A DNA stretch of 29,095 nucleotides from an uncultured virus (IMG/VR IMGVR_UViG_3300014004_000001) (lineage: Duplodnaviria; Heunggongvirae; Uroviricota; Caudoviricetes), in the IMG/VR virus record IMGVR_UViG_3300014004_000001, positions 124,001-153,095 of that record. One strand, 5' to 3'. A program made the translations under genes and the position numbers. Below the pieces are notes generated by a model that had not been told where the DNA came from, searched no databases, and worked only from the letters and a program-made list of their open reading frames with translations. Shown here piece by piece: positions 178-20,787 of this stretch (positions are counted from its first letter, which is position 1; every line of letters begins with the position of its first letter).

Positions 178-681
178 ATGGCTAAAAAAGTAGTAGATGA
201 GTTTGACATGTTGGCTCTTGATGAAGGACTGAAGCTGACTGTTTACCCAGACACCTTGGGATACTGGACAGTCGGCATCGGACACCTTTTGACTAAAAAG
301 AAAGATAAGGCGGAAGCTATTCGTATTCTGGATGCTCTGGTTGGTCGCAAGACTAACGGAGTTATCACAGAGAAAGAAGCCCGTGCTATTTTTGCTGACG
401 ATGTTGAAAAGGCGAAAAAACAGATTAAAAATAGTTCCATTCTTGCCCCAATCTATGATAAGGTAAGTGAAACTCGTAAACTGGCAATCATCAATATGGT
501 GTTCCAGTTAGGGTTAACCGGAACGGAAGGCTTTAAAAATAGCTTGACTTTAATCAGTAATTCGTACTATACTCAAGCTGGTAAAAACATGAGAGCCAGT
601 AAATGGTACTCTCAAACGCCAAACCGTGCAGAACGAGTAATCAAGGTTCTAACATCTGGAACTCTTGATTCTTACAACTAA
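178..681 (+). CDS. endolysin, T4-type lysozyme (GH24)
   Basis: DEGLKLTVYPDTLGYWTVGIGH (E-x8-D-x5-T catalytic triad), NMVFQLG and SKWYSQTPNRAERVI match T4 lysozyme. Confidence 0.97.
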   Translation: MAKKVVDEFDMLALDEGLKLTVYPDTLGYWTVGIGHLLTKKKDKAEAIRILDALVGRKTNGVITEKEARAIFADDVEKAKKQIKNSSILAPIYDKVSETRKLAIINMVFQLGLTGTEGFKNSLTLISNSYYTQAGKNMRASKWYSQTPNRAERVIKVLTSGTLDSYN

Positions 682-683
682 CA

Positions 684-701
684 AAGGGGCGCAAGCCCCT
701 T
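684..701 (+). terminator. hairpin / possible intrinsic terminator
   Basis: AAGGGGC-GCAA-GCCCCTT after the lysozyme stop; short U-tract. Confidence 0.55.
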
Positions 702-718
702 CTATAAGGAGTGCTACT

Positions 719-1474
719 ATGGGAAAAACAGCTACCGCTAAATCACCGCGCCAGAAGTTAGCTTCTAATGCGAAAGTAGAAAGTCGTTATGCTGCAAAAG
801 CAGTTGGAAATGATGACTATCGTTTAGATGGGTTTTCACCAGAAGGAGATCAGCAGCAAATCGTTCAAAGTATGATCTGGAATGATCTTACAGTCGTAAA
901 TGCTCCAGCAGGTACAGGCAAGACTTCCGTGACTTTATGGAAAGCTTTGCAGATGCTTCGAGCAGGAGATTTCCGTAAGCTTCTTTTTATTAAAAACCCG
1001 ACCGAAGTGGGTGATGATCAGATTGGTTTCCTTTCTGGGGACAAGACTGATAAGCTGGCAGCGCACTACGAGTCCACCAAACGAATCTTCCAGCAGTTCA
1101 TGACTGCAAACAAACTGGAAAACGATATTGGTGCAGGGAAGATCGAACTCAACATCCCGAACTATTTGCTGGGTGCCACCCTGGACAATACGATCGTGAT
1201 TATTGATGAAGCACAGCTTATGTCTCCAGAAACATTAAAACTTCTGGTAGAGCGTGCAGGGATCAACACTCATGTTGTTGTTCTTGGAGATGTTCGTCAA
1301 ACCTACGCTATAAAAAAGCGTGCAAACGGTTTGAAAGATCTTCTTGACAAAGTTGCTCCTGAAGGTGAAGATGGTATTCGTGTCCCTCTGGTAGACTTTA
1401 TCGGTTATGTGCAGTTAACCACAGATGACAACAAACGCTCTCGTTTGTCTAAATTCATCACAGAAATTTATTAA
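719..1474 (+). CDS. phoH: PhoH-family ATPase
   Basis: Walker A APAGTGKT, IGFLSGD, LGATLDN, IIDEAQ, VVLGD..Q; start moved to ATG 719 after AAGGAG. Confidence 0.93.
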   Translation: MGKTATAKSPRQKLASNAKVESRYAAKAVGNDDYRLDGFSPEGDQQQIVQSMIWNDLTVVNAPAGTGKTSVTLWKALQMLRAGDFRKLLFIKNPTEVGDDQIGFLSGDKTDKLAAHYESTKRIFQQFMTANKLENDIGAGKIELNIPNYLLGATLDNTIVIIDEAQLMSPETLKLLVERAGINTHVVVLGDVRQTYAIKKRANGLKDLLDKVAPEGEDGIRVPLVDFIGYVQLTTDDNKRSRLSKFITEIY

Positions 1475-1512
1475 TAACAAAAAGCAAGGATGCTTTCTTA
1501 AAGGGAGGGTCG

Positions 1513-2010
1513 ATGGTACAGACAATTATAGATCGGACTGGTATTGATGAGTGTTACCAAACTGGGCTTGTGAAGCCTAATGAGTTCCGACAGATTTGCG
1601 TTAATCATATTGAGAAAGAAATTGCACTAACTTTAGAGAACCTTACCCTCCGAGACAAGCTGTCAATGTTTGTGGCTTGGTGTAAAGGTGAAGATTGGTT
1701 ATTGACCTATTTTCAAGAACTTTCTGATAGTCAAGAAGGCTTGTATGAATGTATAATAGGAATAGCTGGCTCCAATCCTGAACTTCTCCATTTGGAAGAA
1801 GAAGAAGCGAAGTTACTGTTCTTAAGCAATATGTTCAACCGTAAAGCGTTGCTTGTTCGCGAGTGTAGTGATCTTTTGAATCACCCACTGGCAATCACAA
1901 ACGAAATACTGGTTGACAAAGAGACACTACGTGCGATAGACTATCTGCGCAAGTATGTCAACGGCGGGAAAGCAGTTCTTAAAACATTAACAGAGGAGGA
2001 AGCAGAATGA
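1513..2010 (+). CDS. hypothetical protein
   Basis: 165 aa ORF, GGGAGG RBS, coupled to next gene. Confidence 0.8.
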   Translation: MVQTIIDRTGIDECYQTGLVKPNEFRQICVNHIEKEIALTLENLTLRDKLSMFVAWCKGEDWLLTYFQELSDSQEGLYECIIGIAGSNPELLHLEEEEAKLLFLSNMFNRKALLVRECSDLLNHPLAITNEILVDKETLRAIDYLRKYVNGGKAVLKTLTEEEAE

Positions 2011-2696
2011 CTACAATTATCGCAACCAAAAACAAGATCCTTAGTGACGGCAAAGTAACTTTCGGTGGTCGTGTAGACTCAACCAGTTTCAAGAAAGTTC
2101 GTAAGATCGGGGATTATCTCGTAGGTGGTGCAGGGCGTTTGACTTCGGTTTTAGCTTTCTTCCAATGGTTCGAACAGAATCTACAATGTGAAGCGGCTCG
2201 TGAAGCAGTACCTGGTTTGATGATTAGCTCCAACCCTGATCGTGAAGATGAAGAGTTCATTGCTCTCGTTGTTCACCCTGACGGACGTATTTTCCTGCAT
2301 GAAGGTAATGATCCTACTCGTGCATATCCAATCGATGAAGAATACTATGCAGTTGGTAGTGGTTCCGATTTCGCTCTGGCAGCGTTGGATGGTGGTGCTT
2401 CTCCAGAAGCCGCTATGGAAGTTGCCAAGAAGCGTGACGCATACTCTGGTGGCGAAACCTTCATTGAAGAATTAGATGAGATCATTGAACTGACTGACGA
2501 AGATCTCGAAAACTTCACCAAAGAAGAACTGATCAACTTACTGAAGTTTGGTGATCCTGCTGGTGAAGAAACTCCTCGTGACGTGGCAGGTGACGAGACG
2601 GAAGAAGAAAAGGTTGCTGTAGAAAAAGACTTGACTTCTAAACCGGAAAATATTAATCTCGTAGACGTAGCGGATTTCGAAAATCCCGCTTCTTAA
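2007..2696 (+). CDS. HslV/proteasome-beta-like Ntn hydrolase with acidic C-terminal tail
   Basis: N-terminal M-T-T-I-I-A, SDG, KKV, GGAG, AVGSGSDFALAAL, DAYSGG. Confidence 0.85.
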   Translation: MTTIIATKNKILSDGKVTFGGRVDSTSFKKVRKIGDYLVGGAGRLTSVLAFFQWFEQNLQCEAAREAVPGLMISSNPDREDEEFIALVVHPDGRIFLHEGNDPTRAYPIDEEYYAVGSGSDFALAALDGGASPEAAMEVAKKRDAYSGGETFIEELDEIIELTDEDLENFTKEELINLLKFGDPAGEETPRDVAGDETEEEKVAVEKDLTSKPENINLVDVADFENPAS

Positions 2697-2702
2697 TAAA
2701 AC

Positions 2703-2722
2703 TGCCCCTTCGGGGGCATTTC
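2703..2722 (+). terminator. intrinsic terminator
   Basis: TGCCCC-TTCG-GGGGCA followed by TTTCTT. Confidence 0.75.
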
Positions 2723-2741
2723 TTACGCAGAGGAGATTATT

Positions 2742-3179
2742 ATGTTGAACGTTCCTGTTAAATTCGTCGATAGCTGTGTTAATGCTTACCAACAAACTTG
2801 TAAACGTGCCTCAAACTGTTTGCAGTCTTTGATTCAAACGCGGTACGTGATCCAAAAGAAAAGAAAGTGGTTTGGTAAGGATTCTTATAGTGTTAATGCG
2901 TTCGGGGAGTATCAACTCCAGTATGACGATAACATGCAACACATCTTAGAGTTTTTACTGATAAAAGATAAAATCTCCCCTGCGGATTACCAGTTACTTA
3001 AATTCTACGATCAGAGTTTGTCTATTGAGGAAGTTATTCAAGATATCCTTTCTCGTAAGACAGATAAGAACACTGTTGGTATTACAAACTTAGAGATGCA
3101 ATTGCTCAATGAGATCTTTTTGTTTGTGGAAGATGAGTCTGTAACTAAGGAGGAGCTTTTAAATGGCTTTAAGCTATGA
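2742..3179 (+). CDS. hypothetical protein
   Basis: 145 aa, GAGGAG RBS. Confidence 0.8.
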   Translation: MLNVPVKFVDSCVNAYQQTCKRASNCLQSLIQTRYVIQKKRKWFGKDSYSVNAFGEYQLQYDDNMQHILEFLLIKDKISPADYQLLKFYDQSLSIEEVIQDILSRKTDKNTVGITNLEMQLLNEIFLFVEDESVTKEELLNGFKL

Positions 3180-3672
3180 TCGTCCAGAGTCCGATTACTA
3201 TCCGACTCCGCAAAAAGCGATTAACTCGTTATTTAGCATTATTGATTTTAAAAATTTGAAAGAGGAAGGATTTACATTTGCAGAACCGTGTAAAGGACAA
3301 GCAGCGGCTATTTACCGTCACTTTCCTGAAGGTTCTCAGTATTGTGAGCTTGAAGAAGGTAAAGATTATTTTAGTCACGTATGGGAAAATCGTCCCGACA
3401 TTATAATCACGAACCCTCCATTCAAGCTGGCATTAGAGTTCTTGGAAAAGAGCTTGAAAGAAGCAGACGTGTCAGTCTACCTGCTTCGCCTGGGATTCCT
3501 TGAGTCAAAGAAACGTCGAGCGTTTCATCAAGAAAACCCACCTACGAATTTGATTGTACTCTCCGAACGTCCTTCGTTCGTAGCAGGTGGAACAGATAAG
3601 ACAGCGTATGCTTGGTACGTATACGATCCAAAACAAATTTTGGGTCTAACTCAACCATTTTATTTCGTTTAA
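3163..3672 (+). CDS. small amino-(N6A/N4C) DNA methyltransferase
   Basis: DYYPTP, EPCKG (motif I variant), IITNPPF (motif IV), LLRLGFLES, YAWYV. Confidence 0.8.
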   Translation: MALSYDRPESDYYPTPQKAINSLFSIIDFKNLKEEGFTFAEPCKGQAAAIYRHFPEGSQYCELEEGKDYFSHVWENRPDIIITNPPFKLALEFLEKSLKEADVSVYLLRLGFLESKKRRAFHQENPPTNLIVLSERPSFVAGGTDKTAYAWYVYDPKQILGLTQPFYFV

Positions 3673-3682
3673 GGAGCACACT

Positions 3683-3919
3683 ATGGCTAAATTTACTATG
3701 ACCGTTTCTATTGATTTTGATGATGAGGACGGAGGCATTAACTTAGGTATTGCTCAGAGCCTGGAAGGTGATTTGAACCCTACAGAAGCAGCTATGGCGG
3801 TATTCTTTAAAGATGCCATAACAGCTACAGCAACGCATTCTGCAAATCAAACTGTAGATTACGGTAGCATGGTTCAAGCCTTGGTTGATGCTCAAAACGG
3901 TGAAGATTGGGATGATTAA
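3683..3919 (+). CDS. hypothetical acidic protein
   Basis: AAGGAG RBS, 78 aa. Confidence 0.75.
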   Translation: MAKFTMTVSIDFDDEDGGINLGIAQSLEGDLNPTEAAMAVFFKDAITATATHSANQTVDYGSMVQALVDAQNGEDWDD

Positions 3920-4122
3920 TGGCTTATAATTATTATTGCGTTTACGCAAACGAAGCAAAGAAAGGCGATACTGGCACTAATGTCTATGCAGAATCAGAAA
4001 CACATGCAAAAGAAATTGGTGCGATCCTTTTGTCACGTTGGACAGGTGGTAACTATTCTGCTGCGGATCTGTTCGCAGAGATGGATGATACGATCCAAGA
4101 AGACACTATCACCACAACCTGA
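3919..4122 (+). CDS. hypothetical protein
   Basis: TAATG coupling, 67 aa. Confidence 0.7.
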   Translation: MAYNYYCVYANEAKKGDTGTNVYAESETHAKEIGAILLSRWTGGNYSAADLFAEMDDTIQEDTITTT

Positions 4123-4141
4123 TATTGCTTGAAGTAGTTCG

Positions 4142-4174
4142 TACTCTCCTTGTTTCGGCAAGGAGGGTATTTTT
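4142..4174 (+). terminator. intrinsic terminator
   Basis: TACTCTCCTTG-TTTCGG-CAAGGAGGGTA-TTTTT. Confidence 0.75.
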
Positions 4175-4186
4175 AAGGAGGAAGCT

Positions 4187-4378
4187 ATGCAAGAGAATGA
4201 AGAGATAGTTGTTAAAAAGTTCCCGACACGTACACAGGCAGTCAATTTTGCTTCTGATTTGCTTTTGGATGTGGAAGGAGTTCTCATTAGGCATGAAGGG
4301 GATTCCTGGAATGTCTCTTATAATGTAAACAGATCAATTATCTATTTAGGAGAAGAGAACTTCTCTCGTATAGAGTGA
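4187..4378 (+). CDS. hypothetical protein
   Basis: AAGGAGG RBS, 63 aa. Confidence 0.75.
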   Translation: MQENEEIVVKKFPTRTQAVNFASDLLLDVEGVLIRHEGDSWNVSYNVNRSIIYLGEENFSRIE

Positions 4379-4392
4379 TCGAAGGAGTAGTT

Positions 4393-4965
4393 ATGCGTTC
4401 TACTTACACAGGTAAGATTAATTCTGGTATCATTTTAGCAGTAGCAGGAATCATCAGCAAAACTTTCAAAGTGGCAAACCTACCAGAGTGTGTAGATTTT
4501 GACCATGTATTCAATCCAGTAAATCCTTCTCGTTGTGTTGTTCGTAGCAACGTTGAGAATCCAAACGAGAACTTGTTTTATGTAACAGCACCTTCACAAA
4601 GTATTCTAAACCAAGTGGAGGCTAAAATTATTACCGAAGGTAGTTATTTCTCATTGCTACCTTGTAAATCGGTGGAGATTGAAGACAGTATCACCTTCGC
4701 AAATAACTTGGTCTTGACCATGTTCATGGTTTCTGATAAAGACTGTGGAGACGATATGGTTTTAGCTGTAAGGAATGTTTACGACACATTGGGTATTGCT
4801 TATAGCTGTAAGTTGTGCGATGATTATAAATCTTGTTCAGACTTTTACATAAATGGTGTTCGGGTATGCCGTGTTGAATCCTACTGGGTGCAAGACACAT
4901 ACGTAACAGTAGCGAACGTGATCAATGAACCTATGTTCAGCCACGCTTTAGCGTTAATCATTTGA
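4393..4965 (+). CDS. hypothetical protein, possibly a degenerate class II aaRS-like fold
   Basis: ATG 4393 after AAGGAG; SQSIL..GSYFSLLPC and DFYING..EPMFSHA resemble phage aaRS-like proteins (weak). Confidence 0.6.
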   Translation: MRSTYTGKINSGIILAVAGIISKTFKVANLPECVDFDHVFNPVNPSRCVVRSNVENPNENLFYVTAPSQSILNQVEAKIITEGSYFSLLPCKSVEIEDSITFANNLVLTMFMVSDKDCGDDMVLAVRNVYDTLGIAYSCKLCDDYKSCSDFYINGVRVCRVESYWVQDTYVTVANVINEPMFSHALALII

Positions 4966-4975
4966 GGAGGAAGGA

Positions 4976-5305
4976 ATGGAAATTACTACAGAACAGGCTC
5001 TTATCGACGAAGGGCGTAAAATCTTAGAGAAGCATTTGGGAGATATACATCAAACCCCTGGCTACTTAGGGTGGCGCATGGTTGAAGCTGTAGATTTCCT
5101 TCCTCGTACAAAACAAGACGTTGAAATGCGTTCTCTGTTCTTGCTTGTCAAAGTAGACGGGGATACGCCTTTCAAACTCGCAGCTTCACACATTGAGAAG
5201 GTGGAGGAGAAAGCTTATTCAGAGTTTGCCGAACTCGTATTACAGGAGGATCTCGAAGGGAAGGTAAACATTTTTATTTTTCTGGATTTTGAGGAGGAGA
5301 TATGA
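4976..5305 (+). CDS. hypothetical protein
   Basis: GAGGAGG RBS, 109 aa. Confidence 0.8.
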   Translation: MEITTEQALIDEGRKILEKHLGDIHQTPGYLGWRMVEAVDFLPRTKQDVEMRSLFLLVKVDGDTPFKLAASHIEKVEEKAYSEFAELVLQEDLEGKVNIFIFLDFEEEI

Positions 5306-6039
5306 TTTTATATAAAGAGATTACCGTGGAGCAGGATCAAGACCTCTTCATCATCGGGGACTTACATGGTTGCTACGATCTTTACTTGAAAGGTAAGAAT
5401 TATCTTGGTATCCGAGATACAGATGTGGTTGTGTCTCTCGGAGATTTGACAGATCGGGGTAAACAAAACTTCAAATGTGTTGTGGAATTTACACGCAAAG
5501 AGAATCGTTATGCGCTTTGTGGTAATCACGAAGATATGATGATTAAAGGCTTACTGGAAGGAGATCGTCGTTACTACGAATGTTGGTATCAGAACGGTGG
5601 TCATACAGTGTTAGCAGAATGTGATGAAGAAGGCTCTACTCTGCTTGCTACGATGGTTGAGGACAACCCTGTGATTTTGGTTGTGAACTATCGAGGTATG
5701 AAGTTAGGGTTTATTCATGGTGGATATCCTTCCTCTTTTGAATATCTTCCCCTGACAGACATACCACACCTACGTATGAGCAAAGCAAAAGAAGCTACTT
5801 TCGCTGAAGCTTTGATGTGGGATCGTGATATGGTGGAGTGTGCCAAAGAAGGCATGAAACTTCCGGTTGTTATGGGTGTTGATTATGTGTTTCACGGGCA
5901 CTCTTATGTGAAAGAACCTTTGATCAATGCTAATCGTGTTTATATGGACACTGGGTCTGTTTTCAATAACAACTTAACGTTTGCCTATTTTGATGCAGAC
6001 GGTGGACTTCAGTTTTATTCAACTTTACAGGAGGATTAA
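5302..6039 (+). CDS. Ser/Thr protein phosphatase (lambda NinI/PrpA-like metallophosphoesterase)
   Basis: GDLHG, GDLTDRG, GNHE, W..NGG, HGG, LMWDR, HGH, DTG motifs. Confidence 0.93.
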   Translation: MILYKEITVEQDQDLFIIGDLHGCYDLYLKGKNYLGIRDTDVVVSLGDLTDRGKQNFKCVVEFTRKENRYALCGNHEDMMIKGLLEGDRRYYECWYQNGGHTVLAECDEEGSTLLATMVEDNPVILVVNYRGMKLGFIHGGYPSSFEYLPLTDIPHLRMSKAKEATFAEALMWDRDMVECAKEGMKLPVVMGVDYVFHGHSYVKEPLINANRVYMDTGSVFNNNLTFAYFDADGGLQFYSTLQED

Positions 6040-6332
6040 TGTATAAAATTACAATCGTAGAATCGGTGGGTGAGATTCGTAAAGAAATTATTCTGGAGAC
6101 GGAAGATCTGGAACTGGTACGTGAAATCATAATTGGTAAGGATGTAGACAAAGTGGAGTCGGACGCACCCAACCTGATGATCGATGACCAATATGCAGAA
6201 TTTCGTCGTATTTTTGAGGAGGAAAGGAAGAAGTGGGGCAAAGAACCAAACGTTTTTCGTCCTTATGATCCATATCCTTCTGGTGATCCGTGGATCATGA
6301 CTAACAGAAACCCGTTTGAAATAACCTGTTGA
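6039..6332 (+). CDS. hypothetical protein
   Basis: TAATG coupling with GGAGG, 97 aa. Confidence 0.75.
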   Translation: MYKITIVESVGEIRKEIILETEDLELVREIIIGKDVDKVESDAPNLMIDDQYAEFRRIFEEERKKWGKEPNVFRPYDPYPSGDPWIMTNRNPFEITC

Positions 6333-6340
6333 GGTGGCCT

Positions 6341-6919
6341 ATGAGCAACCTATTTTACACAGGTGTGGGAAGTCGAGAGATAACCCACGAAGAATGGGAT
6401 TTAATGGTCGCTGTAGCAAAGTGGTTGGCTAACTGTGGTTTTACTTTACGTTCAGGTAATGCAAACGGTAGTGACTCTGCTTTCGAAACTGGTGTAGAAG
6501 AATCTAAAAACAAAACTCTCAAGGAGATTTATATCCCTTGGGAGAAGTTTAAAGGCAATGATATCCCAGGTGAGAAAATAGTGCTTGCTAATCCTGACAG
6601 TATGAACTATGCTATCAGTCTCCAGTGGATAAAGGAAATCCATCCAGCATTTGATAAACTTAAACAAGGTGCACGTAAATTGCATCAACGTAACGTTCAT
6701 CAGGTGTTGGGACAAGATCTGGAACATCCTGTGCCTTCCTTATTCTTATTGGCATGTTCCAAAGAGGATAAGAAGGGAGATGTTATGGGTGGAACACGGA
6801 CGGCGTGGCTCATCGCTAAAGCTAATAACGTTCCATGTTTTAACTTACGTGGTAAAACAAAGGAAGAACTTTATGCTTTTCTTAAACCGTTGGTCAAGGG
6901 GGCAATCAGTGGCAATTAA
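6341..6919 (+). CDS. SLOG-superfamily (DprA/Smf-like) nucleotide-binding protein
   Basis: YTGVGSRE, LRSGNANGSDSAFE, GGTRTAWLIA, VPCFNL; ATG 6341 after GAGGT. Confidence 0.8.
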   Translation: MSNLFYTGVGSREITHEEWDLMVAVAKWLANCGFTLRSGNANGSDSAFETGVEESKNKTLKEIYIPWEKFKGNDIPGEKIVLANPDSMNYAISLQWIKEIHPAFDKLKQGARKLHQRNVHQVLGQDLEHPVPSLFLLACSKEDKKGDVMGGTRTAWLIAKANNVPCFNLRGKTKEELYAFLKPLVKGAISGN

Positions 6920-7433
6920 GTTAGATCGTGCAAACGTAGGTAATCGCTTTAACCTTAGCCGTATAAACGAGGACACAGATGTTACAGCAGATATTGAAAA
7001 AATCATGCAGGGTATTGTCCATCACGGTTTGCGTTTTGCCAGAGATTTGGTAATCTTTCGTTATGACGGAGAAGATGATCGTTCAAAGAATGATGGGATT
7101 ATCTTCGTAGATAAAGATTTAACCCAAGCAGATATTGAGCAGATCAACCGTTATTTTATTGGTGTAGGGGATCTTCAAGACACGCAGCTTGCACGTCTGG
7201 CAGAAATTCTGGCGAATAAATTGTTGCAAGATATTGGAAAAGTTCTTGACAAAAATCCAAAACATGTTATAGTGACTGTCCACAAAATGAGTTTTATTAA
7301 GTATCTTAACAAACCTGGTAAACTGGGTTATGGGTGGATACGCACAAGTGGACCACAAACCACTCTCGAAACCGAGATGTGCTATACAATTGAAGAAGTA
7401 AAACGTGAGGAGGGAGAGAATGGCGGAATTTAA
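6909..7433 (+). CDS. hypothetical protein
   Basis: GTG 6909 after AAGGGGG, in frame with track ORF 6651..7433. Confidence 0.7.
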   Translation: MAIKLDRANVGNRFNLSRINEDTDVTADIEKIMQGIVHHGLRFARDLVIFRYDGEDDRSKNDGIIFVDKDLTQADIEQINRYFIGVGDLQDTQLARLAEILANKLLQDIGKVLDKNPKHVIVTVHKMSFIKYLNKPGKLGYGWIRTSGPQTTLETEMCYTIEEVKREEGENGGI

Positions 7434-7710
7434 TGAAGTGAAAAGTTACGAAAGCAACTTCGTAAGCAATTGGGAAGCATGGGATGAGATGGGTGTTGGT
7501 GAACTCTATTTCTACAATGTAACCCTTCGTCCAGAATATCAACATCTCATTCCAGAAGGCACTGTGCAGATCGGTATGTTCATGTCTTCTCAAGACGGTG
7601 TTGTGCAGTTTGAGTTTTACTCTGACACAGAACAGAACGAATTCACTTATCGTGCATTCAATATCGTATTAGCTTTAGGAGAGGAGAAATTTTATGACGA
7701 CGAAGTATAA
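7420..7710 (+). CDS. hypothetical acidic protein
   Basis: ATG 7420 after GAGGGAGAG. Confidence 0.75.
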   Translation: MAEFNEVKSYESNFVSNWEAWDEMGVGELYFYNVTLRPEYQHLIPEGTVQIGMFMSSQDGVVQFEFYSDTEQNEFTYRAFNIVLALGEEKFYDDEV

Positions 7711-7891
7711 AACAGTAGCAGAAGCACTGAAAGCAGCACACGAAGCCATTGCAGAAGCTGAACAATTGGCTGATGAAACTGGCACAAGTTTTCACTTCTC
7801 AGTTGAATATGGGATGGGTGGTACTTATGACCCAGAAGATGAGAACGAATACACTGGGACCAACTGGCACCCATCTTCCCTCGGTTGTTAA
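7694..7891 (+). CDS. acidic mini-protein 1, C-terminus WHPSSLGC
   Basis: GAGGAG RBS; shares YGxG and terminal W..SS..C with next two ORFs. Confidence 0.8.
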   Translation: MTTKYKTVAEALKAAHEAIAEAEQLADETGTSFHFSVEYGMGGTYDPEDENEYTGTNWHPSSLGC

Positions 7892-7905
7892 TAAGGAGAA
7901 ATAAA

Positions 7906-8124
7906 ATGAGTGATCGTAATGCACAAGAATTAGCAGACAAAGCAAAAGAAATCATGAAGCTGGTGGATGCACTGGCAGCAGAAGCTGAACAGTTTGGTTT
8001 CGGAGTAAGCTTAGAAAATGATGCAATCTCTTTTGAAGACTGGCAGTCTTCCGCTTGTTATGGCGAAGGAGATGACGGTTTCACCGTTAATTCTGACGGT
8101 GTTTGGTATAGCAGCAGTTGTTAA
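7906..8124 (+). CDS. acidic mini-protein 2, C-terminus WYSSSC plus internal WQSSAC
   Basis: ATG 7906 after AAGGAG. Confidence 0.8.
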   Translation: MSDRNAQELADKAKEIMKLVDALAAEAEQFGFGVSLENDAISFEDWQSSACYGEGDDGFTVNSDGVWYSSSC

Positions 8125-8133
8125 GGAGGGATC

Positions 8134-8403
8134 ATGTCAGAAGGTATCGCCTTAATCAAGGCAAAAGTTAAAGAGATGGAAGAATCACAACAGAAGTTCC
8201 GCAACGAGATTGAAGAACTTTGTGAGCAGTTCCAAGAACAAGCGTGGATCGGTGATTACGGGAATGGGGAAACTTATTACCCAACAGGAACAAACGCAGA
8301 AGAACATTACCTCACCTATATCTGCGGAGACTATGATGTTGAGATTGACGAAAACGGTCTGATGACCCAAGGTCTTTGGGTGTCTTCCTCGGAAATGTGC
8401 TAA
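8134..8403 (+). CDS. acidic mini-protein 3, C-terminus WVSSSEMC
   Basis: AAGGAGG RBS; YGNGETY. Confidence 0.8.
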   Translation: MSEGIALIKAKVKEMEESQQKFRNEIEELCEQFQEQAWIGDYGNGETYYPTGTNAEEHYLTYICGDYDVEIDENGLMTQGLWVSSSEMC

Positions 8404-8411
8404 TAAATAAT

Positions 8412-8433
8412 AACCCGCTTCGGCGGGTTTTTT
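8412..8433 (+). terminator. intrinsic terminator
   Basis: AACCCGC-TTCG-GCGGGTT-TTTT. Confidence 0.9.
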
Positions 8434-8445
8434 ATTGTGTGAGTG

Positions 8446-8474
8446 TTGACAAGACCCGAAGAACCTGGTAGACT
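8446..8474 (+). promoter_or_regulatory. sigma70-type promoter
   Basis: TTGACA-N17-TAGACT, then N5-CATC and GAGGAGG RBS. Confidence 0.8.
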
Positions 8475-8502
8475 TGTCTCATCAACTAAGAGAGGAGGAT
8501 AT

Positions 8503-9447
8503 ATGAAAGTATTAATCGGTAGTCGTGCGTTGGAAATTATTTGTCGTTCTCGTGGTGTAGAACTGTATCGTGCTTGCGTAGATCTGGATTACCTCTGCAC
8601 TGAAGAAGAGTGGCAAGCAGAAGCCCAGAAATTCTCGAAAGATCGTTTCGTAGAAATTGTTGAACGCAAAGGCAACAAAGGGCATATCAAAATGATCGCG
8701 GGTGCTCATCTGGAATATGATATTGCACAACCAGGTGACTCTACAGACGCTTTGATTCAACACATCAAAGAGAATGCAGATCATCTGCCACGTATTGGTT
8801 ATGATGTGGTCGCTCCTTTGGATGTTTTGTACCTTCTGAAGATGAGTCACCGTTTTAAGAAGGACAGTCCTCACTTCCTGAAAACAATGAAGGATATCCA
8901 CTTCATGCGTAACCTTGGAGCGAAGATCCCTGAAGATTTGGAAGATACATACAAACTGCGTCAGAAGGAGTCGTATAATTACGGACACCCTAATCTGAAC
9001 GTGAAAAGTAAAGATTTCTTCAAAGGAGATGAAGTGCCTTATGTATATGATCACGATACCATCCATGAAGCTGTTGCCGTGTTGGGTGATCCCGCTTATA
9101 AATCGTACATGAAAGATGATAGCGAAGTGATGACCAGTAAAGAGAAGTTCTTTGCACAACCTAAACATATCCGTTTGCTGGGTGTTTACGAAGAAGCTTG
9201 CGTCCTGGCGTTAGAGCGTTCACAGATCCCATTTGGAGAAGATGTAGATGGTCCAACTCCTAAACAAAGTTTTATGATGGCTTTATCCAAAGTTTGTACC
9301 TCGATTACCAGTGGATGGTTCAGGGAATATGCTTGGGAAAACTTCCAAGTTGTGGTAAAACTGTATGAGCAAATGGGCCAAGATGATTACGTGGCACGTT
9401 TTAAAGCAAATCTTCACATGGTGAAACCTTACGAAGGAGGTTATTGA
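8503..9447 (+). CDS. putative Pol-beta-superfamily nucleotidyltransferase-like protein
   Basis: N-terminal VLIGSRA...DLD (hGS..DxD); LYLLKMSHRF; C-terminal YDHDTIHEAVA; ATG 8503 after GAGGAGG. Confidence 0.65.
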   Translation: MKVLIGSRALEIICRSRGVELYRACVDLDYLCTEEEWQAEAQKFSKDRFVEIVERKGNKGHIKMIAGAHLEYDIAQPGDSTDALIQHIKENADHLPRIGYDVVAPLDVLYLLKMSHRFKKDSPHFLKTMKDIHFMRNLGAKIPEDLEDTYKLRQKESYNYGHPNLNVKSKDFFKGDEVPYVYDHDTIHEAVAVLGDPAYKSYMKDDSEVMTSKEKFFAQPKHIRLLGVYEEACVLALERSQIPFGEDVDGPTPKQSFMMALSKVCTSITSGWFREYAWENFQVVVKLYEQMGQDDYVARFKANLHMVKPYEGGY

Positions 9448-9448
9448 T

Positions 9449-9847
9449 ATGGGTTGGTGTGATCAGTCACAAAGTTACTTCAAAGTGACACATGCGGATC
9501 TCAACAAGGCAAGAGTGAAGCTGTTGAGTATTGAAAAAGAAACAGCAGCTATTGACAAACGCCTCCGAGAGAGTAAAGTGGTAATCACTTCTTGGTTCGG
9601 ACTGAAACGTAAAGTCCTCACGCAGCGAGAGCATGTAATTAAAAATATGCATGGTTGGGCTTGGTTCCACGACATGGCAAAACACCTGGGGTACATTTCT
9701 ACTGAAGAACACGACCTCTTGGAGCTACGTTATCGCCTTCCAGATGTAGAAGATTTAGACTTGTGGATCAGTTCCGAACAAATCTTCTTAACCGAGAGCG
9801 ATTGGAAGAAAGTCAATATTTGTCTTAAATGGAGGGAGAATGAGTAA
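9449..9847 (+). CDS. hypothetical protein
   Basis: GGAGG RBS, 132 aa. Confidence 0.75.
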   Translation: MGWCDQSQSYFKVTHADLNKARVKLLSIEKETAAIDKRLRESKVVITSWFGLKRKVLTQREHVIKNMHGWAWFHDMAKHLGYISTEEHDLLELRYRLPDVEDLDLWISSEQIFLTESDWKKVNICLKWRENE

Positions 9848-10523
9848 AGTAGTTTTATCAACATTTGATGGATCTGGGATCATGGTACTTCGTTACGCAG
9901 AAGCAGGGCATAAATGCTACTGTGTAAATGCTGACGAAGGTGATCACGGGGCTTATGAAGTTCGCATGGAACATCCTAACATCACTTACGTGAACGCATG
10001 GATTGATTCCAACTTCAACCCTGAAGATTACGGTATCCCTAAGCCAGATATTATCTTTGGCTTCCCTCCGTGTACCATGCTGGCTGGTTGCGGTAGCAAA
10101 CATGAACGCAGCGCAGAAGAGTTGGAAGAAGCTTTGGCGAACATTCGTATCGTGGAAGCTTTAGGAAATAAATACAACGTTCCGTGGATGATTGAGAATC
10201 CAGTGGGTAAACTGTCAACATTGTGGCGTAAACCGGATTTCTATTTCGATCCTTACGAATATGGCGGATATCTGTTTGATGAAGAAGGCAGCTTCCACCC
10301 TAAAATGCCTACCCGTGACGGTTACACAAAGAAAACCTGTATTTGGCATGGCAATGGTTTTGTTAAGCCTGTGAAGAAGCCTGTGGAACATATTGGTTGC
10401 TTCTGGGGCTGGAAAAGTTTAGGTGGAGCAAGTGCGAAAACAAAGCAACTCCGATCGTTAACTGCTCGCGGTTTTGCTCGTGCTGTGTTTTTATCTAACA
10501 ACCTTTTAGATAAGGAGGAATGA
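9840..10523 (+). CDS. compact C5-cytosine DNA methyltransferase
   Basis: VLSTFDGSG (motif I), GFPPCT (catalytic PC), IENPVG (motif VI), YTKKTCIW. Confidence 0.85.
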   Translation: MSKVVLSTFDGSGIMVLRYAEAGHKCYCVNADEGDHGAYEVRMEHPNITYVNAWIDSNFNPEDYGIPKPDIIFGFPPCTMLAGCGSKHERSAEELEEALANIRIVEALGNKYNVPWMIENPVGKLSTLWRKPDFYFDPYEYGGYLFDEEGSFHPKMPTRDGYTKKTCIWHGNGFVKPVKKPVEHIGCFWGWKSLGGASAKTKQLRSLTARGFARAVFLSNNLLDKEE

Positions 10524-11188
10524 TGACCCATTTAAAACCTTTTGGTGGAAAACCTATTGTGGCGTATCAAGTAGATCGTGATGATTGGGAAGGCAGTGTA
10601 GTTGTCTTTGGTAATCATTTCTTTGCTGTGCGTCGTAAAGGCGCAAGCATGTTGGATTGTGAGGAGGAGTATTGTCATGTCTCACGCGCCAAAGAATTCG
10701 ACCAGTATGCAGAAAAAGGTTTTGTGCCTGTCAAAGCTTTACTGGAGGCAGGATGGTGGATACACTCTGCTCATGATGGTGTTAGACTCGACGAGTCTGT
10801 AGATAGTCTTGAGGCAGATTTTGACGAATGTGAAGATGGCATGTATATTGAGGGGGATCTTGTATTTTCCCTTGACGAGAAAAGTGTGTGGAAGAACTGG
10901 GAAGAAATGGAACGTCACGCGCATTTTATCAATGATGCTTTGATTCGTAAAGCTTGGTTCACGGAGGCGGTGAAGGTAGCGTATCCGCAATTCACCTTTA
11001 CAGAGGTTTGGGGCGGTCCACACCACATCACCCATACAGCATTTTTCGACTTCCCTGGTTCACGTTACAAAGGTAATGTAATGTGGGACTGGGATGAGAA
11101 TGAAGTACCATCTGTTCAAGACTTTCGTTGTTATGTTTGCCAAGGCGATCAAGAAGCCCTTGACAAATACCTGCAAAGTCTGGTATAG
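10520..11188 (+). CDS. hypothetical protein
   Basis: AAGGAGG RBS; FDQYA..G.VP...LLEAGWW segment. Confidence 0.8.
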   Translation: MMTHLKPFGGKPIVAYQVDRDDWEGSVVVFGNHFFAVRRKGASMLDCEEEYCHVSRAKEFDQYAEKGFVPVKALLEAGWWIHSAHDGVRLDESVDSLEADFDECEDGMYIEGDLVFSLDEKSVWKNWEEMERHAHFINDALIRKAWFTEAVKVAYPQFTFTEVWGGPHHITHTAFFDFPGSRYKGNVMWDWDENEVPSVQDFRCYVCQGDQEALDKYLQSLV

Positions 11189-11189
11189 T
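11160..11189 (+). promoter_or_regulatory. sigma70-type promoter overlapping the ORF 3' end
   Basis: TTGACA-N18-TATAGT (TG extended -10), then N5-CATC. Confidence 0.7.
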
Positions 11190-11203
11190 GCCAGCATCTG
11201 AAC

Positions 11204-11234
11204 AAAGCCTCCTGCTTCAGGGGGCTTTTCTTTT
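11204..11234 (+). terminator. intrinsic terminator
   Basis: AAAGCCTCCTG-CTT-CAGGGGGCTTT-TCTTTT. Confidence 0.8.
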
Positions 11235-11246
11235 ATGGGAGGAAAT

Positions 11247-11741
11247 ATGTTTCAAGTAGAAATTCATGTGCACAACAGTTGTTCAAATTGCGAAACTTGT
11301 GGTTACAATAGTTCAACCATGATCACTATTAGCGGAGACTTAGGACATGCCAAGTTTGGCGAAGTCGCAAGCTGCTTCAGCGGAGAGGATGCAGATTGGC
11401 ATGATATTGCTTTGTGGCTATGCGGAAGACTGAATGTAAATTGTAAAGACTTCCCTGAACTGTTGAGCCGAAGTCTCGTCGATAGTCGGGAACAAGCCTA
11501 CAATATTTATGCCGCTTCTGTTTATGTTGATCATAAATGGGTAGAAGATGAAGAAGCTGAACGTTTGCTGCGCCTCTACTACGAAGCAGAGGAAGCTTAT
11601 GATAACTATTATAGCATGTCCAACATCCTGCGTTTGTTTGCAGAGTTCGATATTTACTTTGAAGTGAGTTATTCTGAAGATGAAGTGTATGATTTTGATG
11701 ACGATGATTACGAGGAGGATGAAGAATGCCAAGACGATTAA
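11247..11741 (+). CDS. hypothetical acidic protein with CxxCxxCG cluster
   Basis: ATG 11247 after GGAGG; CSNCETCG; D/E-rich tail. Confidence 0.75.
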   Translation: MFQVEIHVHNSCSNCETCGYNSSTMITISGDLGHAKFGEVASCFSGEDADWHDIALWLCGRLNVNCKDFPELLSRSLVDSREQAYNIYAASVYVDHKWVEDEEAERLLRLYYEAEEAYDNYYSMSNILRLFAEFDIYFEVSYSEDEVYDFDDDDYEEDEECQDD

Positions 11742-12529
11742 TAGTGATCAGCGGCGCTGGTCTAAGCGCCGATAGCGGTGTACAAACATTCCGTACAGAG
11801 ACAGAGGGTGGAAAAGCCTTATGGGACGAGTACGATTTAGAGGAGGTTTGTAATATTGGGGCATTCCAGGCAGGTTATCGTAGACGTACATGTCCCGATT
11901 TACCTGTCATCGGAGGTGAGGATGAGGAAGGATACAACCTCTACAACAAGACCCATGATTTCTATAACAAGCGTCGTATAGAGTTGGATAGTATAGATCC
12001 AAACGCTGCACATCGTCTGATTGCTCGTTTATACTCAGAGTATGGTGCTGATCGTATTTTAAACATCACCACTAACGTAGACGATCTTTTGGAACGTGCT
12101 GGTGTTGTTCACGAAGATGTTCTGCATGTGCATGGCTACCTACCAGAAATTATAGTGGACCGGAAGTTTATTAAAGAAATCGGTTATGCAAGTGTGGATG
12201 TGGATAAGTACGATTACGTGAAACCTAATGTTGTCTTCTTCGGGGAATCTGCTCCGCTGTACACAGAGATGTACCATATGCTTGATAATCTCACATCTCA
12301 GGATATGGTTATCGTTGTTGGTTGCTCTAACCAAGTGATCAACTTCAACTGGGAACTCTTCCCTGCCCTGAATATCGGGACAAAAATGGTTGTAGTTAAC
12401 CCAAGTTTGAATTACGTAGAACAAACCCTCTACGAAGAACGTGGAGTTTTTGTTTACCGAGAAAAAGCTGCAACAGCCTTCAGTAATGAAGGTTTCATTA
12501 AAATGATCGAAGACCACTTAAACAAATAA
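11726..12529 (+). CDS. Sir2-family NAD-dependent deacylase
   Basis: SGAGLSADSG..TFR, PNAAH, TTNVDDLLERAG, HVHG, KPNVVFFGE, VVGCS. Confidence 0.93.
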   Translation: MPRRLIVISGAGLSADSGVQTFRTETEGGKALWDEYDLEEVCNIGAFQAGYRRRTCPDLPVIGGEDEEGYNLYNKTHDFYNKRRIELDSIDPNAAHRLIARLYSEYGADRILNITTNVDDLLERAGVVHEDVLHVHGYLPEIIVDRKFIKEIGYASVDVDKYDYVKPNVVFFGESAPLYTEMYHMLDNLTSQDMVIVVGCSNQVINFNWELFPALNIGTKMVVVNPSLNYVEQTLYEERGVFVYREKAATAFSNEGFIKMIEDHLNK

Positions 12530-12536
12530 ACCAACC

Positions 12537-12558
12537 AAGGGGCTACGGCCCCTTTCTT
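12537..12558 (+). terminator. intrinsic terminator
   Basis: AAGGGGC-TACG-GCCCCTT-TCTT. Confidence 0.7.
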
Positions 12559-12572
12559 ATTAGGAGATTACT

Positions 12573-12845
12573 ATGCAACAAGAAACTTTCGATTTTTATC
12601 TCGCCAATTACGTCTACTACTTCTCTAATGGTACACAGAAAGGGGAAGGCAACCTTTACCTGGCTACCAACACTGGAGCAGGTGTTCGTAAAGCCAATAT
12701 TGATTTAGCAAGAGAAACAGTTCGTTCTGGACTGGAAGAGACGCTTGAAACTCCAGTTGTTGTGGTTATACAAACTATCAGTTACCTTGCAACCTGTACT
12801 AAAGAGGATTTTGAGGCTCCTCAAACGCAATCTAACGAAGCATAA
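12573..12845 (+). CDS. hypothetical protein
   Basis: AGGAG RBS, 90 aa; last + strand gene. Confidence 0.75.
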   Translation: MQQETFDFYLANYVYYFSNGTQKGEGNLYLATNTGAGVRKANIDLARETVRSGLEETLETPVVVVIQTISYLATCTKEDFEAPQTQSNEA

Positions 12846-12880
12846 AAGAAAGGCACCCAAGTGGGTGCCTTTTCTATTTT
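12846..12880. terminator. bidirectional terminator at the convergent strand switch
   Basis: AAAGGCACCC-AAGT-GGGTGCCTTT, A-rich left flank and T-rich right flank. Confidence 0.85.
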
Positions 12881-12914
12881 AGAGCGTCTCTGTGTGATTT
12901 AAGGAGGTTCTCGG

Positions 12915-13145
12915 CTATTTGTGAAGTGCTCTCTCGTACAACTCGATAATCAACTCGTCTTCGGCAGTAATACGGGCCATTTGATCTGTCTTCAGGATTG
13001 CTGGTTGGTAATGATGCATTTCACTGCTCAAGATACACTCCCACTCATCTTCCCCTACTCTCTCACCTACGTGAATCTTCACAGGATACCAGAAAGGATT
13101 GTCCACCAGGAATGCCATACAACCTTCTTCGATTTTGCTCAACAT
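12915..13145 (-). CDS. hypothetical protein
   Basis: AAGGAG RBS, 76 aa. Confidence 0.75.
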   Translation of the reverse strand: MLSKIEEGCMAFLVDNPFWYPVKIHVGERVGEDEWECILSSEMHHYQPAILKTDQMARITAEDELIIELYERALHK

Positions 13146-13169
13146 AGTAATCTCCTTTGTTCAGATATG

Positions 13170-13191
13170 AAAAAACCCGCCGAAGCGGGTT
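13170..13191 (-). terminator. intrinsic terminator (identical to 8412-8433)
   Basis: minus strand AACCCGC-TTCG-GCGGGTT-TTTT. Confidence 0.9.
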
Positions 13192-13210
13192 CATGTGCTG
13201 CGGTAGGATC

Positions 13211-13239
13211 AGTATCCTACAACACGAATTGTTTGTCAA
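13211..13239 (-). promoter_or_regulatory. sigma70-type promoter
   Basis: TTGACA-N17-GATACT; -35 contains the upstream TGA stop. Confidence 0.6.
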
Positions 13240-13520
13240 CGTTTGGAGTAGAAAAACTCCTCATATTCTGATCGTGTGACTATTGCTGGGCGACCTTTAG
13301 TGCCGAAGAAGTTTGCGCTTGGGCCTTGTGCCATACCTTTATTGAACAAGCAGTAATCCCCACGCATATAAATCCCAGAGAATGTTTCAACAACATCGTA
13401 TTTGCCAACGCTGGAGAACTTAATTTCTCCATCTGCATCTCGAACTGCGATCACAGCTTGTTCAGGCCATTCTTCGTTGAGAGCTTTAAGACCGTTGTAA
13501 ACTTCTTGTACGAGTTCCAT
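13236..13520 (-). CDS. hypothetical protein
   Basis: AAGGAGG RBS; WPEQAVIAVRDADG. Confidence 0.8.
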   Translation of the reverse strand: MELVQEVYNGLKALNEEWPEQAVIAVRDADGEIKFSSVGKYDVVETFSGIYMRGDYCLFNKGMAQGPSANFFGTKGRPAIVTRSEYEEFFYSKR

Positions 13521-13529
13521 ATTACCTCC

Positions 13530-13703
13530 TTAAAGTACGATTTTTTCTTCGTCTGGTTTGTCATAATTTGGAGAGTAGACATGTGAAGGGTTGAAACCCT
13601 TGAAGCTACCACGTCCTTTACGAGGACAGTTGAAAGTACGAGCCTGATGATCACCGAAAGACTTACCACAATGCACACATTTGAAGTTGGTAACTTTATT
13701 CAT
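13530..13703 (-). CDS. small putative Zn-binding protein
   Basis: ATG 13703 after AAGGAG; CVHCG...H...CP. Confidence 0.7.
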   Translation of the reverse strand: MNKVTNFKCVHCGKSFGDHQARTFNCPRKGRGSFKGFNPSHVYSPNYDKPDEEKIVL

Positions 13704-18893: not shown

Positions 18894-19229
18894 TTAAGAA
18901 CGATCAAGTTTCATTAAAAATACAATCATAGCAGCACGTAGTGGTTTATCATCTCCGCGCGACGGTACGCCTTCTATCTTAGCGAGCCACCCGCGAGGGA
19001 TGCCATCGTCTCCTGTCACAGGACTAATACAAATTCTGTGTTTTACTATGATAGCCCAAGCATCTGCTGGATCATTGCAGTAATCATACCAAGTGTAATT
19101 ACCGTTGCAGTCATTCCCCACTGATCGTCCATCTGCATTGTGCGGATAACCTAAAGGCTTGACACCGTGGACTGCTGCAAACACACGCTTGTTGATTTCA
19201 AAATCACTCATTACTCCATATTCTGTCAT
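18894..19229 (-). CDS. NinX-family (DUF2591) protein
   Basis: SDFEINKRV, DYCNDPADAWAII, PLRAAMIVFLM. Confidence 0.85.
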   Translation of the reverse strand: MTEYGVMSDFEINKRVFAAVHGVKPLGYPHNADGRSVGNDCNGNYTWYDYCNDPADAWAIIVKHRICISPVTGDDGIPRGWLAKIEGVPSRGDDKPLRAAMIVFLMKLDRS

Positions 19230-20570: not shown

Positions 20571-20580
20571 GATCAACTCC

Positions 20581-20787
20581 TCAATCGTTATCAGGCTTCC
20601 ATTTTACAAACTTGAAGCAGTTATTGTCAAGGAATTTATTGGCATCTTTTTCCTGTTTCCAAACGATGCATTGTTCTTTAAGGGCTATCTGCTCATTCTG
20701 CACGTCTGATACCACATCAGCAAGGAGGATCAGAAATCCCAAAAAGACCAACGTCAATAACAGATTAAAGAAAGTTTGAAAACTCAT
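20581..20787 (-). CDS. small membrane-anchored protein
   Basis: N-terminal TM helix; ATG 20787 after GGAGG. Confidence 0.7.
   Translation of the reverse strand: MSFQTFFNLLLTLVFLGFLILLADVVSDVQNEQIALKEQCIVWKQEKDANKFLDNNCFKFVKWKPDND

Follow-up and report, generated by a model that had tools for sequence, protein, structure and literature searches.

The final 29 kb (positions 124001-153095) of a 153,095-bp uncultured phage record carrying direct terminal repeats (IMG/VR IMGVR_UViG_3300014004_000001), a stretch of 29,095 nucleotides hereafter called the window, encodes three tandem small acidic proteins, A, B and C, followed on the same strand by a predicted nucleotidyltransferase (NTase). Comparison across phages indicates that the mini-proteins and the enzyme very probably constitute a real functional two-part module, near-obligate and fixed in order and orientation, and we tentatively propose that the enzyme nucleotidylates serines in the C-terminal tails of its small partners. 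The four genes are:

7694..7891, plus strand: small acidic protein A, 65 amino acids; phrog_899 (E 6.7e-14); turn YGMGGTY; tail WHPSSLGC-stop
7906..8124, plus strand: small acidic protein B, 72 amino acids, starting at ATG 7906; phrog_899 (E 2.8e-5); turn YGEGDDG; tail WYSSSC-stop
8134..8403, plus strand: small acidic protein C, 89 amino acids; phrog_899 (E 8e-13); turn YGNGETY; tail WVSSSEMC-stop
8503..9447, plus strand: nucleotidyltransferase, 314 amino acids; PF23942 (E 9.7e-9), PF23940 (E 4.5e-76), phrog_2141 (E 6.5e-122)

The linkage holds from whichever partner the search begins. Around the best 80 of 190 IMG/VR relatives of the enzyme, where partners were scored by hidden Markov model (HMM) at E 0.001 or better within 4 kb, at least one member of the small-protein family was present at 70 loci, with every match on the strand of the enzyme. 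These genes form arrays of one to six upstream of the enzyme, and one extra downstream copy was seen at 3 loci only. Seeding instead with a DNA pattern that encodes YGMGGTY and has no relation to the enzyme gave 72 stretches; 42 of them hold a family member, and the enzyme lies downstream on the same strand in 40 of these 42. At the two exceptions (L090, L121) the contig ends at the expected enzyme position, and among 30 chance matches to the pattern, used as a control, the enzyme was present at none. Both locus sets are biased toward their search patterns, the enzyme search having used a CTSITSG pattern. The enzyme occurs without a partner at 7 of the 80 loci (L011-13, L019, L047, L070, L084), whereas a partner without the enzyme was never found among the small-protein-seeded loci or in whole genomes, the two contig-end loci aside.

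Because the loci are not independent, we grouped the 132 enzyme-bearing ones into 34 lineages (single linkage, 60% identity; the lineage counts depend on this clustering). The HMM finds an upstream partner in 31 of the 34. A 32nd lineage (L080) has a partner that was found in the HMM scan of loci and missed by the open reading frame (ORF) filter of the lineage count, and the remaining two, with three loci between them (L030, L039, L061), encode longer upstream proteins that have no YGMGG body and still end in ...NWSSSSAHC, ...DWASSRC, ...GWDSSSC or ...NWDSSTC. When the neighbouring ORFs were clustered, conservation was limited to the enzyme (34 lineages) and the small-protein family (31). The next clusters, helicase-like (6 lineages) and RecA-like (4), reflect ordinary T4-type synteny.

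Annotated and complete genomes give the same picture. With a family member as tblastn query, we examined three unrelated annotated phages, Pseudomonas phage phiPsa374, Ralstonia phage RSP15 (two copies) and Myxococcus phage Mx1, and in all three a PHROG 899 gene lies directly upstream of the gene encoding the enzyme domains DUF7277 and DUF7275, on the same strand. All 10 family copies in five phage genomes of 98-371 kb are within ~2.4 kb upstream of the enzyme; in RB69, RB69ORF134c is the enzyme and ORF135c-139c lie upstream of it; and the genome of the window itself has only 3 family copies, all beside the enzyme. A first-pass annotation, made from the letters of this DNA, had suggested that the trio and the NTase could be an undescribed phage module, and the search for co-occurrence in unrelated phages was decisively positive on each of these counts. 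Judged by its genomic distribution, the pair forms, in large lytic phages, a conserved module of two components in which one to six tandem mini-protein genes precede one NTase gene.

To delimit the mini-protein family, a profile built from 25 close relatives was scored against 1.84 billion representative proteins (E 0.001 or better). The family comprises 269 representative clusters, nearly all of 65-150 residues and aligned through the very last residue. We examined 169 sequences, namely 22 close relatives and the matches listed from the profile search, after removing one TPR false positive (P0056). An exact C-terminal Cys is present in 165 of the 169, and W-x(1-2)-S-[SNT]-x(0-3)-C in 168; 154 sequences have a W-to-C spacing of 6 and 11 a spacing of 4, and Ser occupies position -3 in 161 of the 165 that end in Cys. 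A single YGMG occurs in 128 of the 169 sequences, and their median net charge is -8. In the consensus, an amphipathic helix ending ...EAE..ADE.G is followed by F-x-F-x-x-x-YGMGG-x-Y-x-P, then by an acidic linker of 10-68 residues rich in Gly, Glu, Asp, Tyr and Ser, and finally by G-W-x-S-S-S-x-x-C-COOH. Family ORFs beside the enzyme in other phages behave alike: 261 of 271 have a C-terminal Cys, and in 253 of these S[SNTG] occurs among the 7 residues preceding it. By these counts the tail is the most conserved element of the family, which agrees with the first-pass observation that the bodies are diverged and the terminal motif is kept. The further suggestion that the tail is the functional element finds support in comparative genomics, including the survival of the motif on the body-less upstream proteins of the enzyme lineages mentioned above.

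The linker itself carries traces of the motif. Extra W-x-S-S copies stand just ahead of the terminal one in 23 of 162 linkers (e.g., ...RWESSSEGWESSSEGWVSSSSQC), whereas shuffled linkers gave 0.99 on average and a maximum of 6 in 1000 shuffles. These extra copies have no Cys. Because they far exceed the shuffle expectation, W-x-S-S appears to be a duplicable functional unit. At the other end of the protein, longer family members of 100-150 residues (P0028, P0037, P0038, P0105 and similar ones) have an extra N-terminal Lys/Glu-rich, coiled-coil-looking helical segment before the mini-domain, which hints at oligomerisation in some lineages.

Within the window, A, B and C all match phrog_899 and align with W, SS and the terminal C invariant; on this sequence evidence they are paralogues, homologous rather than similar by chance. 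Protein A is a canonical family member, with an N-terminal helix, a YGMGG hairpin, an acidic linker and the tail. Protein B is a divergent paralogue in which an internal WQSSAC is fused directly to YGEGD, and its orthologues (P0001, P0005, P0007 and others) retain both the internal and the terminal motif. Protein C is a paralogue with YGNGETYYP and a longer linker, a subtype also present in other phages (P0049, P0130, P0163). A Shine-Dalgarno-like GGAG or AGGAG lies 6-9 nt 5' of each of the three ORFs. The description given in the first-pass annotation therefore stands in its particulars: three tandem ORFs with these ends, a ribosome-binding site before each, the internal near-copy in the middle ORF and the three YGxG turns are all present, the start of the middle ORF being ATG 7906. 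None of A, B and C has a match in Pfam, NCBIfam or PADLOC.

An AlphaFold2 model of protein A, built with a 114-sequence alignment, has a mean predicted local distance difference test score (pLDDT) of 91.7 and consists of a helix (residues 8-29), a hairpin of two strands (33-38 and 41-45) and a third strand (58-60). The third strand starts at the invariant Trp, and the last five residues (61-65) are less confident (block mean 70); for these reasons the Trp is probably part of the fold, and Ser-Ser...Cys an exposed tail. No solved structure resembles this model, with Foldseek against the PDB giving E > 2 and a wide VIA-align search a best Z of 3.8. Likewise, a sequence-profile search of the PDB with the small-protein alignment returned designed helical proteins only, and a search of the ESM Atlas gave scores of 0.77 or lower. 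The proteins are acidic, as are DNA mimics of the Ocr/ArdA type, but the same searches gave no fold match (best Z 3.8, Foldseek E > 2). Nor do they look like lanthipeptide-type precursors, which combine an unstructured leader with a core and have a dehydratase or cyclase alongside: here we find a predicted folded mini-domain, and the NTase is the only gene conserved nearby.

The enzyme comprises DUF7277 (residues 3-85), an N-terminal core of the polymerase beta (Pol-beta) NTase type, and DUF7275 (residues 108-297), a helical domain of ~190 residues rich in invariant His, Lys, Arg and Glu. PHROG 899 and PHROG 2141, like DUF7277 and DUF7275, are all annotated as of unknown function in PHROGs and Pfam. 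The database holds 2332 relatives of the enzyme, and coliphage and Pseudomonas-phage versions share ~50% identity. Across 44 homologues the catalytic-type residues G6, S7, D27, D29 and E71 are invariant, and so are, among others, K113, H116, H124, D131, H162, H184, D185, H188, E230, E231, E238 and R239, as well as the stretch C265-T-S-I-T-S-G271. K113 and D131 resemble K137 and D152 of MenT1 in order and spacing, as compared by sequence position (PMC10435456). We considered whether Cys265 of the enzyme tracks the terminal Cys of the partner and rejected the idea: partner-less enzymes retain Cys265, and the sample collected with the CTSITSG pattern is biased.

The AlphaFold2 model of the enzyme (pLDDT 91.4) aligns with eight NTases at Z 8.5-10.9 in VIA-align, the best being MenT1 (Z 10.9 over 152 residues, root-mean-square deviation 3.6), followed by TglT/MenT3 (9.6), ANT(2'') (9.3), JHP933 (9.0), LnuA (8.8) and MenT4 (8.5); Foldseek also matches it to MenT1 (E 5.9e-4, probability 1.00). 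Residues 181-304 have no fold match above Z 4.2. Neither the AbiEii/MenT profile PF08843 nor the RlaP profile PF10127 matches the enzyme even at E 10, and sequence and profile searches of the PDB found nothing, MenT included. Features of the Pol-beta NTase superfamily are present, namely an hG[GS] loop, a metal-binding DxD pair, a third acidic residue and the alpha/beta core fold. Because GS...DxD...E is invariant and the fold matches are to NTases, the enzyme is, on sequence and model, an active-looking Pol-beta-type nucleotidyltransferase with an additional novel helical domain; the first-pass annotation had been right to call the gene after the trio a GS..DxD, nucleotidyltransferase-like protein.

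The enzyme gene turns up in 705 of 50,697 phage records, including RB69-type and other T4-like, Acinetobacter, Aeromonas, Pseudomonas and jumbo phages. Among prokaryotes, with one genome for each of 185,579 species, there are only 5 relatives, all in metagenome bins, and the pair thus appears essentially confined to phages. W..SS..C partners are missing from a distant clade of shorter enzymes (Streptomyces phage Annadreamy gp196, Gordonia phage Bachita gp17, Vibrio phage KVP40.0037). In 3 of the 4 members examined a different small neighbour of ~100 residues, with the pattern 'YF.KTGYY...VEV.P...T', adjoins the enzyme and may represent a second, different partner family:

L174: short-clade enzyme at 3348-4103; different small neighbour at 4100-4438
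L175: short-clade enzyme at 3312-4103; different small neighbour at 4103-4393
L176: short-clade enzyme at 3156-3917; different small neighbour at 2860-3156

Three phages have an RNA ligase gene no farther than ~2 kb from the enzyme: Ralstonia phage RSP15 (L006 6803-7825), Annadreamy (L174 1534-2193) and phage DSS3_VP1 (L177 1330-2310), the last of which also has a metallophosphoesterase there. The PF09414 RNA ligase was not found in the window's own genome, and RNA ligase is not among the neighbours conserved across the enzyme lineages.

Three transcription signals, all on the strand of the module, bear on how its two parts are expressed:

7246..7273, plus strand: sigma-70-like promoter (TTGACA, 16 nt, TATAGT, TG; 11/12 matches)
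8412..8429, plus strand: intrinsic-terminator-like hairpin after gene C (GC-rich 7-bp stem, TTCG loop, T-run)
8446..8474, plus strand: sigma-70-like promoter before the enzyme gene (TTGACA, 17 nt, TAGACT, TG; 10/12 consensus match)

The promoter at 7246-7273 could drive A-C together with an upstream ORF at 7405-7710, and sigma-70-like promoters would suggest early expression. As a class, terminator-like sites are enriched in our scan (11 found, 3.9 expected) and promoter-like sites are not (9 found, 10.3 expected). A look-up of sequencing runs returned only metagenome and metatranscriptome contig sets, in which RNA-labelled runs held no more than 0.33 of the words, and such contigs cannot show expression. 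The first-pass annotation had regarded the terminator and new promoter as separating the mini-proteins from the enzyme. This is true of the present phage and not general, since across 31 lineages the last small gene and the enzyme are separated by a median of 70 nt, and in 18 of these lineages the gap does not exceed 100 nt. Because of this short gap elsewhere, we regard the terminator and promoter as a feature of the lineage, not as a sign of independence.

What might the pair do? The linked genes, the exposed Ser-Ser...Cys tail and the fact that relatives of the enzyme nucleotidylate hydroxyls together lead us to favour, with a probability of roughly 35 to 40%, nucleotidylation of the Ser hydroxyls of the mini-protein tail. 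The folded body of the mini-protein would dock on the enzyme, the flexible Ser-rich tail would enter the active site, and a nucleoside monophosphate (NMP) would be transferred to a tail Ser hydroxyl, as the structural relatives do with the 3'-OH of RNA (MenT) or with sugar hydroxyls (ANT(2''), LnuA); the extra W-x-S-S copies in the linkers could be modified likewise. The modified mini-proteins, diversified in their acidic loops, might then act on host targets early in infection, and their hypervariable acidic loops and paralogue arrays do point to matured proteins whose host targets are diverse and evolve fast. A role as substrate also fits better than one as antitoxin, because the enzyme occurs without the partner (7/80) and the partner never without the enzyme.

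Several points weigh against Ser nucleotidylation. It does not by itself explain the invariant terminal Cys, and the spacing from the Ser pair to that Cys runs from 0 to 3 residues, so that the geometry of Ser and Cys is not fixed to one form. Gene C and the enzyme are, in this window, separated by a terminator and a promoter. The distant enzyme clade has a different small neighbour in 3 of the 4 members examined, and the swapping of unrelated small partners is typical of toxin-antitoxin pairs; the RNA ligase genes that accompany the enzyme in RSP15, Annadreamy and DSS3_VP1 hint at an RNA substrate. Finally, the closest fold relatives with a known macromolecular substrate, MenT1 and MenT4, act on tRNA and not on protein (PMC10435456).

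The main alternative, to which we give a lower probability, is an enzyme directed at RNA or tRNA like MenT, in host tRNA modification or RNA-end repair, with the acidic mini-proteins as nucleic-acid-mimicking regulators or inhibitors. They would fill an electropositive RNA cleft, with the tail lodged in the active site where a 3' end would otherwise sit, much as MenA1 blocks MenT1. The top fold matches (MenT1, TglT, MenT4) speak for it, and MenT1 has an electropositive cavity that is blocked by a short protein antitoxin (PMC10435456). The mini-proteins are strongly acidic (median net charge -8) and encoded upstream, as antitoxins usually are, and the different small protein of the distant clade and the RNA ligase within 2 kb in three distant phages fit as well. 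However, the presence of the enzyme without partner at 7 of 80 loci, and never of the partner without enzyme, is the opposite of what an essential antitoxin would lead one to expect, and arrays of up to six diverged paralogues with hypervariable loops are unlike antitoxins. Moreover, the module is essentially absent from bacterial genomes (5 matches, all metagenome bins), this phage has no PF09414 RNA ligase and none is among the conserved neighbours, and the mini-protein fold, with its best Z of 3.8, resembles nothing solved. We also consider it quite unlikely that the mini-proteins act alone, for instance as acidic decoys for a host protein or as peptides that dock on it, their adjacency to the enzyme reflecting shared regulation or inherited synteny. 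Their acidic composition and hypervariable loops, the early-type promoters and, in this phage, a transcription unit separate from that of the enzyme are compatible with such a role. Yet inherited synteny can explain neither that the oriented adjacency persists in Phapecoctavirus, T4-like, jumbo, Otagovirus, Ralstonia and Myxococcus phages, where all other neighbours differ, nor that no stray family copy exists elsewhere in 6 whole genomes.

Two further possibilities bring the terminal Cys into play. Chemistry resembling that of ribosomally synthesized and post-translationally modified peptides (RiPPs), here on a folded protein, would have DUF7275 eliminate O-nucleotidyl Ser to dehydroalanine, to which the Cys thiol would add, closing a lanthionine-like thioether ring at the C-terminus or tying the protein covalently to a target. 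In class III and IV lanthipeptide synthetases, Ser is activated by phosphorylation before elimination. Only this scheme would account for the terminal Cys, and it accords with tandem diverged 'precursor' genes adjoining one enzyme, with the invariant Ser-Ser and the Ser at -3 in 161 of 165 Cys-ending sequences, and with a DUF7275 that has many invariant His, Lys, Arg and Glu and whose residues 181-304 align with known folds at Z of at most 4.2. Nevertheless we judge it very unlikely: no LanB, LanM, LanKC, cyclase or decarboxylase-type gene is among the conserved neighbours, the extra W-x-S-S copies have no Cys, the protein is predicted to be folded (pLDDT 91.7) and not a leader plus core, and the Ser-to-Cys spacing varies. 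A fixed S-x-x-C ring geometry is itself weakened, being kept in 209 of 271 family ORFs with spacings of 0-3 residues. An unlikely further reading is that large lytic phages have a protein-modification system of their own, in which a MenT/ANT-like enzyme builds nucleotides, or short chains of them, on the Ser hydroxyls of an array of acidic carrier mini-proteins, or uses the nucleotidyl ester as a leaving group to give a dehydroalanine captured by the terminal Cys; nucleotide-decorated or thioether-closed effectors would then act against host targets.

The module lies in a plus-strand block (178-13600) with several recognizable genes and an ORF that overlaps the start of gene A:

178-681, plus strand: lysozyme
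665-1474, plus strand: PhoH-like
2007-2696, plus strand: proteasome/HslV-like
5302-6039, plus strand: metallophosphatase
6329-6919, plus strand: DprA-like
7405..7710, plus strand: ORF of 101 amino acids, phrog_4991; 17-nt overlap with the start of gene A
9840-10523, plus strand: DNA methyltransferase-like
11726-12529, plus strand: Sir2

By neighbour-ORF clustering, none of the lysozyme, PhoH, HslV-like, metallophosphatase, DprA, methyltransferase and Sir2 genes accompanies the module in other lineages. The ORF at 7405-7710 is probably co-transcribed with gene A; its family is not among the neighbours kept across lineages and so stands outside the conserved module. An antisense ORF of 218 amino acids (8512-9168, minus strand) lies inside the enzyme gene and has a counterpart in 21 enzyme lineages; it is most likely a shadow ORF arising from conserved codon usage and not a gene. 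Elsewhere, a minus-strand block of small ORFs includes a serine recombinase gene with a resolvase N-terminal domain (19896-20576), a NinX-like gene (18894-19229) and a DUF7202 gene (20784-21158).

Escherichia phages phiWec188 and phiWec190 (genus Phapecoctavirus) match the window segment 7400-9600 at 96% identity, and 65 more phAPEC8-like phages match it at about 75-77%; in phiWec188, phiWec190 and the phAPEC8-like records, all genes under these matches are labelled 'hypothetical protein'. The top database match is Pseudomonas phage PsgM04F (96.5%), whose stated host is P. coronafaciens, a label that looks odd given that the remaining close relatives are all coliphages. In phiWec179, phiWec181 and phiWec186 the segment is matched as two pieces covering 2790 bases as against 2201, which implies an insertion of ~590 bp, and phage nepoznato has an annotated HNH endonuclease gene under its match. 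Together these suggest that a mobile nuclease gene has inserted in this region in some relatives.

Hundreds of sequenced phages have the pair, among them RB69-like phages and others of the T4 type, jumbo phages, phages of plant pathogens and the phAPEC8-like coliphages that go into therapy cocktails, and both genes are annotated 'hypothetical'. A literature search, in a collection without subscription journals or recent items, turned up nothing on the two families or their pairing. The strict linkage of enzyme and partner and the invariant C-terminal motif offer an unusually clean start for experiments. If phages do nucleotidylate their own small proteins, MenT/ANT-type chemistry would extend to protein serines and yield a new kind of matured early effector; the carrier or leaving-group scheme would likewise define a novel class of phage effectors matured by an enzyme, and would put the MenT fold to a new use. 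Should the mini-proteins instead regulate an RNA-directed enzyme, lytic phages would have in the pair their first MenT-like system.

Among known systems, the closest in enzyme fold are MenT1/MenA1 and MenT3 (TglT)/MenA3 of Mycobacterium tuberculosis (PDB 8AN4, 8AN5, 6J7N), which share a bi-lobed NTase core with a helical domain; PMC10435456 describes MenT as placing NMP on the 3'-OH of RNA and, in MenAT1, a short partner protein that controls the enzyme. The phage enzyme differs in having no PF08843 profile match even at E 10, and the module is phage-only, with 5 matches in 185,579 species genomes, whereas the MenT pairs are bacterial toxin-antitoxin loci. Its partner family is unrelated, is arranged in arrays and has an invariant C-terminal motif, and the enzyme can occur without it. 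RlaP (PF10127), associated with RNA ligase, is likewise a phage-encoded Pol-beta NTase (PMC7824862; bioRxiv 10.64898/2025.12.29.696909), and a few distant relatives of our enzyme lie near RNA ligase genes; the phage enzyme has no PF10127 match, no RNA ligase among its conserved neighbours and no PF09414 in this genome. In MntA-HepT (MNT/HEPN, a type VII toxin-antitoxin system), a Pol-beta-type NTase also stands beside its partner protein, and MntA polyadenylylates HepT, which provides a precedent for modification of a partner protein and for the mechanism that we favour (PMC7641770). MntA, however, is a minimal NTase that modifies a HEPN RNase, whereas the phage partner is an acidic mini-protein of 65-150 residues without HEPN features. 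ANT(2'')-Ia and LnuA (PDB 4XJE, 4WH5) resemble the N-terminal NTase core (Z 9.3 and 8.8), and their chemistry is transfer of NMP to a hydroxyl, in their case of sugars. Unlike the phage enzyme, which adds the conserved ~190-residue helical DUF7275, they have small-molecule substrates and no partner protein. In CitX/MdcG with their acyl-carrier subunits, and in GlnD with PII, a small protein serves as the dedicated partner of an NTase-type enzyme and receives from it, on a Ser or Tyr, a group derived from a nucleotide. We found no sequence or fold link to these, and they serve as analogies for how the pair might work. The resemblance of the phage pair, an NTase with a dedicated partner protein, to MenAT or MNT-HEPN is equally one of analogy.

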